Positions 16,699 through 23,772 are shown, counted from the first letter of the stretch. The stretch is DNA of 64,000 nucleotides from Candidatus Parcubacteria bacterium (GCA_023130975.1 JAGMAD010000001.1:17238-81237), one strand, 5' to 3'. Numbers and translations are program-made. The notes: a model not told the origin generated them from the sequence alone.

Positions 16699-16836
16699 GC
16701 CCGAGGCAACCTTGTTCTGAGCTCGTCCTGAGCTCGTCGAAGGACTGCCTCGGGCTTTTGTTTTTCATTGATAAAAACCCAAAAATGAGTTAAATTAAAA
16801 GAATGGAGGAAAATAAAAACAGAATAAAAGATTTAG
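16699..16836 (+). repeat. Duplication copy A: GC terminator hairpin, radC promoter and first 11 radC codons
   Basis: gcccgaggc...gcctcgggcttttgttttt, then attgataaaaacccaaaaatgagttaaattaaaagaATGgaggaaaataaaaacagaataaaagattta. Matches 17523-17671. Confidence 0.85.
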
Positions 16837-16861
16837 CGAAAGTTAAAAAATATTTAAAAAT

Positions 16862-17386
16862 ATGGCGACACAAGATTTAGCTAAAAAACCTAAAGACCAA
16901 ATTTATTACGCTTTTATTGATAGCCAGAATCTAAATTTAGGCATCCAAAGTTGTGGCTGGAAATTAGATTTTGCCAGATTTTATATTTATCTTAAGGATA
17001 AGTATAAAGCGGAAAAAGCGTTTTTGTTTATTGGTTATGTTGCCGGCAATGAGGCACTATACACCTTTCTACAAAAAACAGGATATATTGTTATATTTAA
17101 GCCAACATTAGAATACAAAAAGGACGATGTAGTGCATACCAAAGGCAATGTTGACGCTGAATTAGTTTTACACACAATGATAGAATACCCAAATTATGAT
17201 AAAGCGGTTATCGTTTCTGGCGATGGTGATTTTCACTGCTTAATTGAATATTTAGAACAAAAAAGAAAATTGGGACGAGTTATTATTCCGAACAGAAAGA
17301 GTTATTCTCAGCTTCTCTGGAAATTCAAAAAATATATGGATTTTATGAATAATTTAAGAAATAAACTTGAAAGACACAACAAATAA
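16862..17386 (+). CDS. NYN (LabA-like, PIN-superfamily) domain protein, copy 1
   Basis: YAFIDSQNLNLG, FLFIGY, GNVDAELVLHTM, VIVSGDGDFHCLIEYL. Paralogue of 21828-22346. Confidence 0.8.
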   Translation: MATQDLAKKPKDQIYYAFIDSQNLNLGIQSCGWKLDFARFYIYLKDKYKAEKAFLFIGYVAGNEALYTFLQKTGYIVIFKPTLEYKKDDVVHTKGNVDAELVLHTMIEYPNYDKAVIVSGDGDFHCLIEYLEQKRKLGRVIIPNRKSYSQLLWKFKKYMDFMNNLRNKLERHNK

Positions 17387-17440
17387 AAAAAGGGGTGTCG
17401 CTTTAAGGACGAAACCTTAAAGACTTTTCCCCTTCGTGAT
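17385..17440 (-). ncRNA. Candidate ~55-nt hairpin RNA convergent on NYN copy 1
   Basis: Bounded by the promoter at 17447-17474 and a hairpin plus U run (GAAGGGG..CUUUAAGG-UUUCGU-CCUUAAAG..CCCCUUUUUUU). Start is approximate. Confidence 0.4.
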
Positions 17441-17446
17441 ATATTA

Positions 17447-17474
17447 AGTATAGCAAACTGACACCCCTTGTCAA
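17447..17474 (-). promoter_or_regulatory. Sigma70-like promoter TTGACA-16-TATACT on the minus strand
   Basis: -35 at 17469-17474 and -10 at 17447-17452, read on the minus strand. Confidence 0.5.
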
Positions 17475-17522
17475 GTGGAAAATTACACTTAACCAAAAAA
17501 GAAAATAAAACTTGAATTAGTT

Positions 17523-17671
17523 TGCCCGAGGCGATTGCCTCGGGCTTTTGTTTTTGATTGCTATTGAGTACCAAAAAAACCTGTCCTGAGCCTGTCGAAG
17601 GAATTGATAAAAACCCAAAAATGAGTTAAATTAAAGTAATGGAGGAAAATAAAAACAGAATAAAGGACTTA
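17523..17671 (+). repeat. Duplication copy B: terminator hairpin plus the functional radC promoter and 5' end
   Basis: TTGATA (17604-17609), 17 nt, TAAATT (17627-17632), 6 nt, ATG 17639. Differs from copy A by two synonymous changes in the 11 shared codons. Confidence 0.85.
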
Positions 17672-18325
17672 CCCAAAGTAGAACGGCCGAGAGAGAAATT
17701 AATTTTGAAAGGGCCCGAAAATTTAAAAGATGAAGAACTTCTGGCAATTTTGCTTCGGACTGGCAGGGAAGGCAAAAATGTTTTAGATTTAGCCAAGCAG
17801 ATTTTGAATAAACATTCAAAAAAGCGTTTTTTGAAGATGAGATACGAGGATTTAATAAAAGTGAAAGGAATAAACGAAGCCAAGGCCTGCACAATTCTCG
17901 CCAGTATGGAATTAGTCAAAAGAGCCTTAAAAATCCAGGATGAAACCTTACCAATTATTAATTCTTCTAAAGATGTAATAGCTCAAGCCGTTTATTTGAG
18001 AGATAGAACTCGCGAACACCTAATGACTATTTATCTCAACGCTAGAAATGAGATGGTTTGGAAAAAACAATCGACATTTATTGGCACTTTAAATACCAAT
18101 TTAGTTCATCCCAGAGAAATTTTTCAAGAAGCTTTAAAACACAATGCCGCCTCAGTAATTTTAGTCCACAATCATCCTTCAGGAGATAGCGAGCCATCCC
18201 AAGATGACTTAGAAATAACAAAGAGAATTATTGAAGCCGGCAAAATAATGGGCATAGATGTTTTAGACCACATAATCATCACCAAAACCAAAGCATTCAG
18301 CTTCAAAGAAAAAAAGTTGATATAA
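17639..18325 (+). CDS. radC: RadC-like JAB/MPN domain protein
   Basis: IKDLPKVERPREKL N-terminus, HhH region, JAMM motif HNHPSGDSEPSQDD. Confidence 0.9.
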   Translation: MEENKNRIKDLPKVERPREKLILKGPENLKDEELLAILLRTGREGKNVLDLAKQILNKHSKKRFLKMRYEDLIKVKGINEAKACTILASMELVKRALKIQDETLPIINSSKDVIAQAVYLRDRTREHLMTIYLNARNEMVWKKQSTFIGTLNTNLVHPREIFQEALKHNAASVILVHNHPSGDSEPSQDDLEITKRIIEAGKIMGIDVLDHIIITKTKAFSFKEKKLI

Positions 18326-18360
18326 TAAACAAAATCCAAAACTAGAAATATATTAAAACT

Positions 18361-18717
18361 ATGTCAGATATAAAAAACCTAACAGAAAAAATCATAAAAT
18401 TCAGGGATGAACGCGATTGGAAACAATTCAATAATCCTAAAGATGTGGCTTTATCTTTACTTTTAGAAGCAACGGAAGTTTTGGAACATTTTCAGTGGAA
18501 GAATCCAGAAGAAATTGCAGAATATATAAAAACCAACCAAAATGAAATTGGGGAAGAATTGGCTGATGTTCTGTATTGGATTTTATTGATGAGTCATGAT
18601 CTCGAGTTGGATATCTTAGATGTGCTTGAGAAGAAAATTCAAAAAAATCAAAAAAATATCCCATTAAGAAAGCCAAAGGTAATCACACTAAATATAATAA
18701 ATTGTAACTATGCGTAA
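18361..18717 (+). CDS. MazG-like all-alpha nucleotide pyrophosphohydrolase
   Basis: FRDERDWKQFNNPKDVALSLLLEATEVLEHFQW ... GEELADVLYWILLMS (EExxE...D metal-binding helices). Confidence 0.8.
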   Translation: MSDIKNLTEKIIKFRDERDWKQFNNPKDVALSLLLEATEVLEHFQWKNPEEIAEYIKTNQNEIGEELADVLYWILLMSHDLELDILDVLEKKIQKNQKNIPLRKPKVITLNIINCNYA

Positions 18718-19855
18718 TATATTTATACTTTATATGCCGCCGGGTAACAGTGAAGTAATGGTACACTATGAAGATACTATTAAGAATAAAGTTCCGCAGG
18801 AACGGATCTTTAAGTATTTGGATTTTAATTTACAAAATAGGTTAAAAAATGTTTTTAGTAACAGATCTATTGCTGTGTGGGGATCTAGAGATTCTAGTGC
18901 TAATCGTTCGCGTTTCGAAAAAATGCAAATAGGGGACGATATATTAATCGTAGAGGGCGAAATAATCAAACTGATGGGAAAAGTGGCAGCCAAAGTAATT
19001 AGCCCTAATTTGTCGTGCGAGCTTTGGAAAAATTTAAGAGGGGAATCAACAGAGGGATGGAACCTTATTTATTTTATCGCTAACCCACTTGAGATTAATC
19101 TACCATTCAATGAATTTAAGAAGATATTTGGTTACAAACCAAGTTGGAACTTGCGTGGTTTTACGAATATTTCTGATGATAGGCTTGAGGAATTTTATGA
19201 TAAATATGATGACCTTTATTCAATTTTGCAAAAGATAAAAGGCGGAGAAAAAATTGAACAAAAACTTGAGCCAGAGTTTATCAGGGAAAAAGAAATAGAG
19301 AAAACCAGATTAGAGACGGAAGATATAGATGACATTCTGAATAATAAGGAACTCTCCGAACATATAAAAATGCAATGGAAGCTTATCCGACTTGGGTTGA
19401 AAGCTGACTCCAAGGTTTGGATTCCACGAAATGATCAGTCAAGAATAGAAAAGCAATTTGGCTTTAGGGATTTTGAGAAACAATTTGCATCTGGTATAGA
19501 TGTACCTGTGCAATATGTTGAGAATATTGATGTGGTGTGGAAGGAGGAATTTCGTATCCATGCAGCCTTCGAAATAGAGAATACAACTGCAATATATTCT
19601 GGCTTACTTCGTTTTTCTGATTTAAAAATTATAGCCCCTAACAGCCCGTATCCATTGTTTATAGTGGCTCCATTATCAAAGAAGAACCGTGTTTTTCAAC
19701 AAGTGAAGAGGCCGACATTCCGAGAACTTGGCTTTGACAAGGAAGTGCGTTACCTTGCTTATGAAGTAGTTAATGAAATTGACAAGTTTTTTGATAAATC
19801 AAAGAAGGGACTAAATGTTGAATTATTAGTAGGCAAGTCGGAAAAGGCAAGCTAG
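18710..19855 (+). CDS. Hypothetical protein, possible modification-sensing nuclease (weak call)
   Basis: Overlaps mazG-like by 8 nt. The N-terminal half looks like a small beta-barrel (AVWGSR...GDDILIVEGEIIKLMGKV). The C-terminal half has IDVVW...AAFEIENTTAIYSGLLRFSDL, reminiscent of a restriction-endonuclease-like core. No firm family. Confidence 0.3.
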   Translation: MRNIFILYMPPGNSEVMVHYEDTIKNKVPQERIFKYLDFNLQNRLKNVFSNRSIAVWGSRDSSANRSRFEKMQIGDDILIVEGEIIKLMGKVAAKVISPNLSCELWKNLRGESTEGWNLIYFIANPLEINLPFNEFKKIFGYKPSWNLRGFTNISDDRLEEFYDKYDDLYSILQKIKGGEKIEQKLEPEFIREKEIEKTRLETEDIDDILNNKELSEHIKMQWKLIRLGLKADSKVWIPRNDQSRIEKQFGFRDFEKQFASGIDVPVQYVENIDVVWKEEFRIHAAFEIENTTAIYSGLLRFSDLKIIAPNSPYPLFIVAPLSKKNRVFQQVKRPTFRELGFDKEVRYLAYEVVNEIDKFFDKSKKGLNVELLVGKSEKAS

Positions 19856-19937
19856 CTAATTAGCTAGCTGTTTTAATTTGTAGTTTTCACTAAGCGTCTG
19901 CAAAAAGGTCAAAGAATACTAAAACCAGATTGATAAA

Positions 19938-19997
19938 ATGGTATATAAACTTTACGGCTTAACAAAGGAGAAAATTAAAATTGTTGAGCAAAAATAA
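19938..19997 (+). pseudogene. Orphan C-terminal tail of a type IIG/RM-type DNA methyltransferase-like gene
   Basis: Encodes (QIDK)MVYKLYGLTKEKIKIVEQK*. This is the stereotyped ..lVYeLYGLTeeEIkiVE end of such enzymes, preceded by in-frame stops. Confidence 0.5.
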
Positions 19998-20046
19998 AAA
20001 GATGAATAAGGAGTTTTATAATTTTTAAATAATTAAAATAAAATTT

Positions 20047-21726
20047 ATGGCTACTTATCAAGATTTTTCTTTAATTAAAAAAGAGGTTGAGTTTGTTAAA
20101 AAAAGAAATGATATAGATAAATTATCTATGGCTTTTATTTTTATGGTCCTAGAGAAATTATATCCAGATATAGAACCTTTTGAGAATATTACTGATGACA
20201 CAAGAGATTTAAGTGTAGATGCTTATTATATTGATAAAAATACGAAAACAATAAATATTTTTCAATTCAAATATACTGAAAATTTTAATACAGCAAGAAA
20301 TAAAAACGCTTTAAAAGAAAAAGAAATAAACGATTTTATTATAAAATTAAAGTATATTTGGGATAGGGACGAGGAATTTATTAAAAAAGCAAATCATAAA
20401 TTAAAAGACGCAATTAAGGAAATTTGGTCAGCATTTGAAGATGGATATACTAAAACAAATATTTACTTTGTTTCTAATTATAAAGATACAATTAATGGAG
20501 GAAATATTAAGGAAATTCAAAAAAAACTTAAAAATGAATTTAGAGGAAAATTAAAAATATTATCTTTAAATGATTTAATAAAGGTTTTTATAAAAGAAGA
20601 GTTTTCTCCAGTAGATATTAAATTACAGTTAAAGGGTAAAAATTACTTTGAAGAATCAACCGGTGATGTCAGAGCGTTGATTTCAGAAGTAAATGCGTTA
20701 AATTTTTTAAAATCAATTTTAGATGAAAATGATAATTTAATTGAAGATGTGTTTAATGAAAATATTAGGGTTTATTTGCGTTCCAATACAAAAATAAATA
20801 AACAGATATATAATTCTATTGAAAGCAAAAGTAATTATAAATTTTTTTATTACAACAATGGCATTACTGCTATTTGTGATAATTTTGAACACAATTTTTC
20901 TGATAGTCCAATTGTTAATATGGATAATTTTCAAATTGTTAATGGTGGCCAAACAATGCATGCTATTTACGAAGCCTATAAAAATGGATTACAGGATAAT
21001 GTAGGAAATATTTATTTACTTTTAAGAGTTTATGAGGTTAAAAAAAATAGGGAAATTGGTCAAGATATAGCAAGATTTACAAACACTCAAAATCCTGTAA
21101 AAAATAGAGATATAATGTCAAATGATATGATTCAGGTTAAATTACAAAAAGAATTAAGAAAAGAAGGATTTTTTTATGAAAGGAAGAAATACGAATTCAG
21201 AGATCAAAAAATTGGTAATGATAAAAAAGTAGATGCAGAAAAATTAGGACAATCAATCCTTGCTTTTTATATTGACAAACCGGGTTCTGCCAAAAATAAG
21301 AAGCAAGAAATTTTTGGAAATTTTTATAATAGTATTTTTGATGAAAGCAGAATAAATAGCGATTTTGTTCTATTACCCTATCTTTTATATAAAAAGATAG
21401 ATAACGATGTTAGAGAATTTAAAGTAGAACTAAAAAGATTAGAAAAGGCGGGAAAAACGGAAAAAATGAAAACAAAAATAGAAAGAAATGGATTTTTAAA
21501 TTATGCACATTATTATTTATTATTTACATTAAAAGTATTAGCTGATAAGAACAACATTTTGTTTGAAAAGGCAAATATTACAAAAATATTTGAGAATTAC
21601 AATAAGGCAAAAGATATATTACGTAAGATAGTTGATAAGGAAAAAAAGAATCCAAAATTTTCCATGCCCTATCTTTTTAAAACAGACGATCTTGTAAAAA
21701 AGATAAAAGACAAAATTGATAAATAG
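20047..21726 (+). CDS. AIPR (abortive-infection phage resistance) family protein
   Basis: YYNNGITAICD and FQIVNGGQTMHAIY blocks as I recall for the AIPR family. 559 aa, very AT-rich. Confidence 0.55.
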   Translation: MATYQDFSLIKKEVEFVKKRNDIDKLSMAFIFMVLEKLYPDIEPFENITDDTRDLSVDAYYIDKNTKTINIFQFKYTENFNTARNKNALKEKEINDFIIKLKYIWDRDEEFIKKANHKLKDAIKEIWSAFEDGYTKTNIYFVSNYKDTINGGNIKEIQKKLKNEFRGKLKILSLNDLIKVFIKEEFSPVDIKLQLKGKNYFEESTGDVRALISEVNALNFLKSILDENDNLIEDVFNENIRVYLRSNTKINKQIYNSIESKSNYKFFYYNNGITAICDNFEHNFSDSPIVNMDNFQIVNGGQTMHAIYEAYKNGLQDNVGNIYLLLRVYEVKKNREIGQDIARFTNTQNPVKNRDIMSNDMIQVKLQKELRKEGFFYERKKYEFRDQKIGNDKKVDAEKLGQSILAFYIDKPGSAKNKKQEIFGNFYNSIFDESRINSDFVLLPYLLYKKIDNDVREFKVELKRLEKAGKTEKMKTKIERNGFLNYAHYYLLFTLKVLADKNNILFEKANITKIFENYNKAKDILRKIVDKEKKNPKFSMPYLFKTDDLVKKIKDKIDK

Positions 21727-21827
21727 GAGGTGAAAAAGGGATCAGGAACCTTTTTATAAATTAATGAATGCTGAAGAGTTAAAAGCAAAACAAAAGATTA
21801 AAGAATTAATTAAATTTAAATAAAATT

Positions 21828-22346
21828 ATGGAAAAACAAGAAAGCAATTTTGCGTTTATTGACAGTCAAAACCTTAATTTAGGAATTCAAAACTTGGGCT
21901 GGAAATTGAATTACAGAAGATTTAGAGTTTATTTAAAAGAGAAATATAAAGTATCTATAGCTTATTTGTTTATCGGCTATATTCCAGCTAATCAAGACTT
22001 ATATTCTTCATTGCAAGAAGCCGGGTATGTTTTGGTTTTCAAGCCGACGTTGCCTGATAAGAATGGAGAGGTAAAGGGTAACGTGGACGCAGATTTGGTT
22101 TTACAGGTAATGATTGATTATAAGAAATATAACAAAGCTATAATTGTTACAAGCGACGGAGATTTTTATTCTTTAGTTAAATATTTATACAAAAATGATA
22201 AACTTAGATGCGTGATAAGTCCATATATTAAAACTTGTTCGGTTTTGTTAAAAAAAACAGCTAAAGAAAAAATTGTTTTTATAGAAAATTTGCGTAAAAA
22301 ACTTGAATATAAAATGAAAAAGCACCGCGTAAGGACAAAACCTTAA
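21828..22346 (+). CDS. NYN (LabA-like) domain protein, copy 2
   Basis: FAFIDSQNLNLG, YLFIGY, GNVDADLVLQVM, IIVTSDGDFYSLVKYL. Collinear with copy 1. Confidence 0.8.
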   Translation: MEKQESNFAFIDSQNLNLGIQNLGWKLNYRRFRVYLKEKYKVSIAYLFIGYIPANQDLYSSLQEAGYVLVFKPTLPDKNGEVKGNVDADLVLQVMIDYKKYNKAIIVTSDGDFYSLVKYLYKNDKLRCVISPYIKTCSVLLKKTAKEKIVFIENLRKKLEYKMKKHRVRTKP

Positions 22347-22370
22347 AAGGTGCTTTTTCGTATGTATTCT
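22316..22370 (-). ncRNA. Candidate ~55-nt hairpin RNA convergent on NYN copy 2
   Basis: Promoter at 22377-22404, then GAAAAAGCACC-UUUUAAGG-UUUUGU-CCUUACGC-GGUGCUUUUU. Overlaps the last ~10 codons of the NYN gene antisense. Confidence 0.4.
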
Positions 22371-22376
22371 ATTATC

Positions 22377-22404
22377 AATATAGCAAACCACAGACCTTTG
22401 TCAA
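22377..22404 (-). promoter_or_regulatory. Sigma70-like promoter TTGACA-16-TATATT on the minus strand
   Basis: -35 at 22399-22404, -10 at 22377-22382. Same layout and same flanking gtttgctata as at 17447-17474. Confidence 0.5.
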
Positions 22405-22454
22405 GAGGTGAAATAAATAACCAAAATTTAGGCTGAAGTTGAGGGAAATTTAAA

Positions 22455-22709
22455 ATGTTTATGGTAAAGAAAAATTCTCAAGCTTATACAATAAAGATTT
22501 ATTGTATGAAATGCAAAACTCTTCTTTATAGATACAAAAAGGAAGGACAGGGACATTTAGTAAAATGCTATAAAGATGGAATTATTGAAGATAATACAAA
22601 AGGGGATTTGAAATGTCCTAAATGTAAACAGTTATTTGCAAGAGAAGCTATGTACCATAATCGGCTGGCTAACAAAATAATTCAAGGAAAAGTTTATGTA
22701 AGAAGATAA
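22455..22709 (+). CDS. Hypothetical zinc-ribbon protein
   Basis: CMKC...20 aa...CPKC four-Cys ribbon in an 84-aa basic protein. Confidence 0.45.
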   Translation: MFMVKKNSQAYTIKIYCMKCKTLLYRYKKEGQGHLVKCYKDGIIEDNTKGDLKCPKCKQLFAREAMYHNRLANKIIQGKVYVRR

Positions 22710-23304: not shown

Positions 23305-23772
23305 TCAAGAAATAAGGTTGTCTGTATTTTTTGATAAAAAAAAGAAAGGATGCTAGAGAAGGCATCCTTATAATAATAACGATATAATATCATTCATTCG
23401 GTGAAAACCTCTGGCTGGTTCCCAATTCTCCCTCCGCAACATTCGGAGGAAAGGCCAAAGACAAACTTCTTAATAATAAATGTGAGTACAATATATAAGG
23501 AAATGAGTGAAATAGATGAAAAAGATAAAAAGAAAATTAAGAAGTTTTTTAGTGAGCCCGCAGTTAAAAATTGTAATGAACTATGTAATGAACTATCCTC
23601 TATCAATTAGATGGTGTCTAACTGATAGAGGTTGAGAAAAAGATTTCTTTTTCCTTTTCTCTCCATTTCCATAATAGCACAATAGATTTTCTTGTCAAGG
23701 GCTTTTTGTGAAAATTCAAAAATCGCGAGCCACTCTTTTGCCCACGACGATTTTTTGGTAGAATAGGATAAT

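Follow-up and report, generated by a model that had tools for sequence, protein, structure and literature searches.

A predicted small structured RNA gene adjoining LabA-like NYN nuclease genes of Patescibacteria, and its candidate role as partner of the nuclease

Two genes for LabA-like NYN nucleases in a Candidatus Parcubacteria bacterium (GCA_023130975.1, JAGMAD010000001.1:17238-81237) each end against a promoter and a hairpin on the opposite strand, which raises the question of whether these elements form a small RNA gene and, if so, what its RNA would do beside a nuclease. Both loci lie in the window, the whole stretch of 64,000 nucleotides analyzed here. The LabA-like NYN group of bacteria is functionally unknown, and no RNA partner is mentioned for it (PMC5499597). 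Two protein queries matched 7775 and 2585 bacterial LabA-like NYN clusters; the 7775 database relatives of copy 2 are mostly Patescibacteria, and its closest solved structure, 2qip, is a NYN protein without known function. The features around the two genes are as follows:

21828..22346, plus strand: coding sequence of NYN copy 2, a LabA-like NYN/PIN-like nuclease of 172 aa (ORF list, translation, Pfam)
22377..22404, minus strand: promoter of the small RNA (sRNA) of copy 2 (promoter scan, 11/12 plus a TG extended -10)
22314..22370, minus strand: predicted sRNA of copy 2, ~57 nt (match to covariance model R1, fold, promoter position)
22317..22358, both strands: hairpin with flanking A5 and T5 runs (fold, covariation)
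21807..22408, plus strand: conserved cassette of a 21-nt leader, the NYN coding sequence and the sRNA gene with its promoter (second context, L231)
16862..17386, plus strand: coding sequence of NYN copy 1, 174 aa (Pfam PF01936)
17385..17474, minus strand: sRNA of copy 1 with its promoter (promoter scan, R1, fold, alignment A1)

Both proteins belong to PF01936 (E = 1.2e-11 for copy 2) and keep the catalytic aspartates, which in copy 2 are Asp12, Asp87, Asp110 and Asp112 and are invariant in alignment A3. Because the proteins are only 55% identical, the copies are not a recent duplication; the original prediction that the module is under selection holds at the level of the family. Comparison of homologous loci revealed no conserved promoter or 5' UTR before the NYN start codons, the upstream sequences being unrelated; NYN transcription would come from whatever lies upstream. 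A viral origin was rejected after an IMG/VR protein scan and a tblastn search of GenBank phages returned no match. On plasmids, only Sinorhizobium NYN genes at 25% identity were found, and the one inspected has no module downstream.

Behind NYN copy 2, the promoter scan recovered on the minus strand the promoter that had been proposed there, TTGACA-16-TATATT, with its -35 at 22404-22399, a 16-nt spacer ending in TGc (22385-22383) and its -10 at 22382-22377. Promoters of this quality (11/12 plus TG) number only three in 12 kb, and one of them occupies the same relative place behind NYN copy 1. The ends of the copy 2 RNA derive from consensus rules, which place the start to within +/-2 nt and the 3' end in the U-run; the start was set 7 nt past the -10, the -10 of type-B relatives ending 6-8 nt before AUCACG. 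The predicted transcript consists of the 5' leader AGAAUACAUACG, an A-run, the hairpin and a U-run, and its 5' tail reads AAUACAUACG (family consensus, AUCACGAYG). The RNA sequence quoted in the original prediction is the exact minus strand of 22359..22317.

The hairpin arms at 22317-22358 have the form AAAAAGCACC-N22-GGTGCTTTTT (AAAAA-GCACC...GGTGC-TTTTT), and the top of the hairpin is UAAGG-UUUUGU-CCUUA. This structure folds at -21.7 kcal/mol on the minus strand (z = -6.2 versus shuffles) and at -24.8 kcal/mol on the plus strand, and the pattern would be expected by chance 0.03 times per window. The NYN stop codon (22344-22346), which follows the C-terminus ...KMKKHRVRTKP*, lies inside the hairpin. 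The predicted RNA shares 33 nt with the NYN reading frame in antisense, equal to 10 codons plus the stop, in agreement with the earlier claim that the transcript would be antisense to the last ~10 codons. With its stability, an A-run before it and a T-run after it, the copy 2 hairpin is a bidirectional intrinsic terminator common to the NYN mRNA and the sRNA. The terminator role accounts for the hairpin, but not for the promoter, the loop or the tail. Judged from the sequence, the element as a whole appears to be a real small structured RNA gene of ~55-60 nt, which we infer to be independently transcribed.

A third near-consensus promoter with a TG (TTGACA-16-TATTAT) is located farther along on the minus strand, 23698->23671, with a good terminator at 23369->23346, ~300 nt past it. 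The minus strand of 23346-23698 could encode a transcript of ~320 nt or the mRNA of a small protein; searching this segment by E-value gave no Rfam family, the best candidate being the L20 leader at 18 bits.

The element behind NYN copy 1 is built in the same way, with the -35 TTGACA at 17474-17469, the -10 TATACT at 17452-17447, a predicted 5' end AUCACGAAGGGG at ~17440 and a hairpin at 17432-17392 followed by a U7 run (-20.3 kcal/mol, z = -4.6). Here the NYN stop codon lies just outside the stem, within the A-run that is the complement of the U7 run. Alignment A1 of the two loci upholds the flank motifs noticed originally: GTTTGCTATA, covering the TG and -10 region, and CTTGACAA, covering the -35, are invariant between the copies. 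When the 64-kb window was searched with R1, the two significant minus-strand matches were the two NYN-linked copies, copy 2 at 22313-22376 (81.6 bits, E = 6e-16) and copy 1 at 17386-17448 (36.3 bits, E = 1.6e-5); the sole other significant match was the plus-strand reading of the copy 2 hairpin (28.0 bits, E = 0.0013). Both copies fit the family described by R1 and by R2, a model of a diverged variant of the RNA termed type B, whose members combine a sigma-70-type promoter, a conserved tail of ~8-13 nt, a long imperfect hairpin, a U-run and an adjoining small LabA-like NYN gene. At gathering thresholds, Rfam 15 detects three tRNAs only in the whole window. Membership of either copy in an Rfam family was rejected at permissive E-values as well, with scores of at most 18 bits (E = 0.5 or worse) that reflect generic terminator similarity (ohsC, Thr_leader). 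The element is undescribed in the literature searched on NYN proteins, antitoxin and antisense RNAs, and Patescibacteria/Saccharibacteria.

Conservation of the RNA was examined in homologues obtained by scanning one genome per species with the NYN protein, which gave 43 loci, all of them metagenome-assembled. In MAFFT alignment A2 (29 RNAs, an 18-pair helix), 89.2% of cells are paired versus 79.6% in shuffles and 48-62% in slid registers, and 17 of the 18 stem pairs carry compensatory changes, values that none of 500 shuffles matched, in statistics that ignore phylogeny. The stem covariation asserted for the two copies therefore holds at the level of the family. For the type-B variant, pairing reaches 90.2% versus 84.5% in shuffles. 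The stems of both subtypes contain conserved mismatches. Among stem pairs, G-U outnumbers A-C by 34 to 12, and this excess favors the minus-strand RNA as the functional molecule. The overlapping NYN codons and stop may account for some of the conservation seen in the 3' arm.

Unpaired positions are conserved as well. The apical loop U-U-Y-Y-G-U has invariant T37, G41 and T42, the single-stranded 5' tail is conserved, and type-B RNAs conserve two unpaired segments, the internal loop RAAM/UAA and the loop NNNANUR. The RNA subtype follows the NYN clade. Promoter columns from 45 homologous sequences of several phyla show T41 T40 G40 A33 C33 for the -35, 38/31 for the TG and T39 A43 ... T40 for the -10, with a spacer of 16-17 nt; unlike the -35, TG and -10, the spacer sequence and the region upstream of the -35 vary. 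At a Bacteroidota locus the module occupies the same position behind NYN. Two structural ideas were discarded: a pseudoknot between the leader and the apical loop, inspected by eye, is visible in few sequences and not conserved, and the idea that the RNA mimics a tRNA T-arm, an anticodon loop or the sarcin-ricin loop does not fit its loop sizes and sequences.

The association between RNA and NYN was assessed from both sides. Starting from the protein, the module adjoins the NYN 3' end in 43 of 43 loci, convergent in 42 and tandem in one (L035), so that a second copy of a NYN-associated convergent RNA, as originally proposed, proves to be an instance of a general arrangement; R1 and R2 together detect the module in 38 of these loci, and the remaining five were recognized by eye. 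Starting from the RNA, metagenomes were scanned with the type-B pattern without any NYN sequence, which yielded 67 instances at 66 loci, 62 of them evaluable. A convergent NYN gene abuts the RNA at 53 of the 62, NYN is divergent from the RNA at one (L187), and eight have no NYN gene, including one that keeps a remnant of the NYN tail (L169). Every type-B instance with enough upstream sequence has a TTGACx-N17-TAtAaT-type promoter 6-8 nt before AUCACG. Overall, the convergent overlapping layout is found in 31 of 31 type-A loci and in 53 of 54 NYN-linked type-B instances. Loci with two NYN paralogues have a separate RNA for each. Truncated or remnant NYN genes occur beside intact RNA modules (the L027 orphan, L028, L040 and L042). 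In this subfamily every NYN gene found is accompanied by the RNA, whereas the RNA also occurs alone. NYN-RNA pairs are present in thousands of genomes from uncultured organisms, most of them CPR/Patescibacteria.

Several of the solitary or unusual elements deserve description. The orphan module of L027, a Minisyncoccales metagenome-assembled genome (MAG), retains only the last ~12 NYN codons and is nearly identical to 22296-22455 of the window. Some loci have two serial hairpin units behind one NYN gene, and others have an orphan module (L027, 1029-1168 and 1466-1580; L025, 3499-3689). Three metagenome orphans with intact promoters (L184, L203 and L225) lie at the 3' ends of unrelated genes, namely those for a 136-aa membrane protein and for what we take, from sequence patterns, to be a HicB-like antitoxin and a pRiA4b ORF-3-like protein. 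A 16-mer RNA scan of viral contigs returned 80 loci, a number of matches close to the estimated chance level, and only one of them is a true element. This element (L120, 788-850 of IMG/VR contig 3300010400_000033, a predicted viral contig; 55.7 bits) directly follows an endolysin-like gene, with neither NYN nor a clear promoter; it may have arisen by capture of a terminator, or it may serve the phage as a decoy of an antidote RNA.

The orientation of the RNA gene relative to NYN bears on how the RNA could act. P0121 and P0123, two related lineages of Saccharibacteria, are 75% identical and have different gene neighborhoods; in both, the promoter-RNA-terminator unit is tandem with NYN, its -35 overlapping the NYN stop, whereas the RNA gene is convergent in the six other lineages sampled in the same clade. 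The tandem layout probably arose by a single inversion event. It makes antisense pairing to the NYN mRNA impossible there, and because NYN, RNA structure and promoter are all intact in these lineages, antisense overlap is not required. The cis-complementarity of ~33 nt to the end of the coding sequence, present in copy 2 and at most loci, is the usual geometry of the system but not an essential one, given the tandem Saccharibacteria lineages, the divergent locus and the orphans at 8 of 62 loci; the term "antisense RNA" likely suits the layout better than the mode of action. That convergent overlap persists in >90% of linked pairs could nevertheless indicate that the overlap matters and is not mere descent. 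Pairing of the leader with the NYN 5' region, as in par/Fst, was rejected by RNAduplex comparison with shuffles at 35 loci (mean z = +0.24), with positions inconsistent among these loci.

The boundaries of the module are delimited by a second context of the identical 172-aa protein (L231), where SMODS and SLATT_4 genes lie upstream and a transporter gene downstream. Over 603 nt, positions 21807-22408 match L231:3980-4581 at 98.5% identity, and the match stops 4 nt beyond the sRNA -35; outside, similarity is absent or 92%, and the next common block is displaced by ~330 nt. This sharply bounded identity indicates that the unit of inheritance is the NYN coding sequence together with the sRNA gene and its promoter, ~600 bp in all. 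For copy 1, a look-up of the protein returned the window's own context only, which carries no information on cassette boundaries. Conflict genes are often found near the cassette, such as AbiU/AIPR and a restriction-enzyme-like gene in the window and SMODS/SLATT in L231; other conflict neighbors of NYN-RNA loci are RelB/YoeB, AAA_15/21 ATPases and Fic. The two NYN cassettes of the window flank a likely defence island (17639-21726) with the following genes:

17639-18325: RadC
18361-18717: MazG-like pyrophosphatase
18710-19855: restriction-enzyme-like/NmeDI_C
20047-21726: AbiU/AIPR (PADLOC AbiU, E = 2e-52)

Direct repeats surround the copy 1 cassette (16714-16843 and 17520-17679; 77 nt at 92% and shorter blocks at 90%), containing a terminator hairpin (gcccgagg...cctcgggc plus a T-run), the radC promoter and the first ~13 radC codons. 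The left repeat now precedes NYN copy 1 and the right one precedes the intact radC (17639-18325), which suggests that the copy 1 cassette was inserted with a ~145-bp duplication of the 5' region of its host gene. The sequence GTCCTGAGCyyGTCGAAGGA is also repeated (16714-16744 and 17583-17602), within the loop of the terminator hairpin on the left and after the terminator on the right. At copy 2, the motif AAAATTTAGGCYGAAGTTGAGRGAAATTTAA is situated at 22423-22453, immediately beyond the sRNA -35 and shortly before the ATG of the next gene, and it recurs at cassette junctions in L027 (504-520, ~1180 and 1600-1616) and L231 (1264-1301). It could mark a hotspot of recombination, or be a 5' UTR or ribosome-binding region common to these sites.

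What, then, might the RNA do? Orientation independence, conserved unpaired positions and the lack of trans-complementarity together argue that the RNA molecule itself matters, and not only its complementarity to the NYN mRNA; antisense pairing would place no constraint on the unpaired positions. Direct binding of the RNA to the protein would fit, indirectly, the conservation of these positions, the co-variation of RNA subtype with NYN clade and the independence from orientation. A strong RNA promoter beside a promoterless NYN gene predicts a large excess of RNA; this excess, the asymmetry between orphan RNAs and NYN genes, and the defence-island context are in keeping with an RNA antidote that acts on the protein. 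The reading preferred here, to which we give slightly less than an even chance, is that the sRNA is a structured partner or antidote of the NYN RNase, similar in kind to type III toxin-antitoxin systems and carried in defence islands. The sRNA gene and the gene of a small, catalytically intact NYN RNase constitute a two-gene cassette. The near-consensus promoter would keep the RNA in large excess over NYN, and the RNA would bind and neutralize the nuclease; a collapse of host transcription, for example upon phage infection, would lead to loss of the RNA and free the nuclease. In the convergent layout, the RNA hairpin would also terminate both transcripts, and control might gain a second layer if the RNA paired in antisense with the 3' end of the NYN mRNA. 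In this scheme we infer transcription, RNA-protein binding, NYN toxicity and any defence role. Whether the antidote function or another function of the ribonucleoprotein applies, we put at even odds the existence of a widespread, undescribed two-component system of CPR/Patescibacteria, seen also in Bacteroidota and Spirochaetia MAGs, in which a promoterless NYN RNase is coupled to a strongly expressed ~55-nt RNA acting on the protein, either as an RNA antitoxin or within a ribonucleoprotein.

It is unlikely that the RNA is instead a required cofactor or specificity subunit of a NYN ribonucleoprotein nuclease rather than an inhibitor, with its 5' tail or loop recognizing a conserved cellular or phage RNA or keeping the enzyme active. 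Such a cofactor would explain why NYN never occurs without the RNA in this subfamily, and the linkage, subtype-clade co-variation, unpaired conservation and orientation independence fit it equally well. However, the 5' tail is conserved rather than variable and so is not a programmable guide, the predicted large excess of RNA is typical of antidotes and not of 1:1 cofactors, and orphan RNA genes with intact promoters exist. In addition, no NYN or PIN-like enzyme is known to us to depend on an RNA.

A cis-antisense mechanism of type I character, the main rival, is rather improbable. Starting from the complementary loops, the sRNA would pair with the NYN mRNA 3' end across the shared terminator, and cleavage of the duplex over the last codons and the stop, by RNase III for instance, would leave the message destabilized or stopless. 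The near-universal convergent overlap in both subtypes speaks for such a mechanism, as does the NYN stop codon, which lies inside or at the hairpin in both. The size and layout of the RNA gene resemble those of the ~65-nt RNA II of par/Fst, which likewise shares a bidirectional terminator, and the conserved stem mismatches recall known antisense RNAs, whose mismatches help the duplex to propagate. Nevertheless, the overlap extends only over a hairpin that folds on itself with great stability, the RNA is not complementary to the NYN translation start, and the complementarity of the loops follows from the geometry, leaving the invariant loop, tail and internal loop unexplained; two diverged tandem lineages, one divergent locus and eight orphans also speak against such a mechanism. 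Least plausible of all, and very improbable, is a conserved bidirectional terminator with an incidental or insulating promoter-like site and a functionless short transcript: the hairpin with its A-run and T-run does fold on both strands and would end both transcripts, and the viral-contig hairpin behind an endolysin-like gene lacks NYN and a clear promoter, but the promoter hexamers and their distance to the hairpin are kept across phyla, the promoter moves with the hairpin on inversion and is kept in orphans, the loop and 5' tail are conserved although a terminator has no need of them, and G-U pairs are in excess on the promoter's strand.

Comparative support for an undescribed RNA family is strong, and the family could be deposited as new with alignments A2 and A4 and models R1 and R2. 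To our knowledge, very few non-coding RNAs are known from CPR bacteria. If a two-component system with an RNA that acts on NYN does exist, it would represent a new, type III-like class of RNA-antitoxin defence module with a non-repetitive RNA or, alternatively, the first RNA-dependent NYN ribonucleoprotein, and the ~600-bp pair would move between defence islands as a cassette. A dedicated RNA partner would give the numerous LabA-like NYN nucleases a testable function and would extend the repertoire of toxin-antitoxin and phage-defence systems by an RNA-protein pair of new structure; at ~600 bp, the cassette is compact for experiments.

Among known systems, ordinary bidirectional intrinsic terminators, like the element, place a GC-containing hairpin and its flanking A-run and T-run between convergent units, but they have no dedicated promoter at a fixed distance, no conserved loop or tail and no co-inheritance with a protein across phyla. 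SymE/SymR and RalR/RalA of E. coli also place a nuclease toxin under small-RNA control; however, SymR overlaps the 5' end of its target and RalA acts in trans with Hfq, both unlike the NYN-associated RNA, and SymE and RalR have protein folds unrelated to NYN and no shared terminator. Regnase-1 (ZC3H12A), a NYN/PIN-like RNase, recognizes specific stem-loops, one of them in the 3' UTR of the mRNA that encodes it, and so offers an analogy for a hairpin-recognizing NYN enzyme. This eukaryotic multi-domain protein differs in lacking both a separate sRNA gene and homology at the family level. The element recalls Regnase-1 in enzyme class, par/Fst-RNA II and the 3'-overlapping type I loci of Bacillus in layout and ToxIN in logic, and it belongs to none of these families.

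The type I systems (par/Fst-RNA II of pAD1; txpA/RatA and bsrG/SR4 of Bacillus subtilis) are the nearest in layout, being convergent with a shared bidirectional terminator and having a ~60-nt sRNA with a strong promoter that is complementary to the toxin mRNA 3' end. Their toxins, however, are small membrane peptides, whereas NYN is a soluble nuclease of 172 aa and not a small hydrophobic peptide. Moreover, RNA II of par/Fst also pairs with the toxin translation start via direct repeats, whereas the NYN-associated RNA has no such 5' complementarity, and the tandem NYN lineages rule out obligatory pairing. Type III systems (ToxIN, CptIN, TenpIN and AbiF-like) likewise couple an RNase to a small structured RNA made in excess, and they share with the NYN pair an RNA thought to act on the protein, an occurrence in defence islands with abortive-infection logic, and orphan antitoxin RNAs. 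Their antitoxins are tandem repeats located upstream on the same strand, with a terminator in between, and are processed by the toxin, whereas the NYN-associated RNA consists of one hairpin unit, has a promoter of its own and in most cases lies downstream of NYN in convergent orientation. Apart from occasional double hairpins (L025 and L027), a tandem antitoxin array is absent; the NYN-associated RNA shows no evident processing site, and the protein, a PF01936 NYN, does not match the ToxN/AbiQ fold. The pair therefore fails the structural definitions of type III and is type III-like in its logic.
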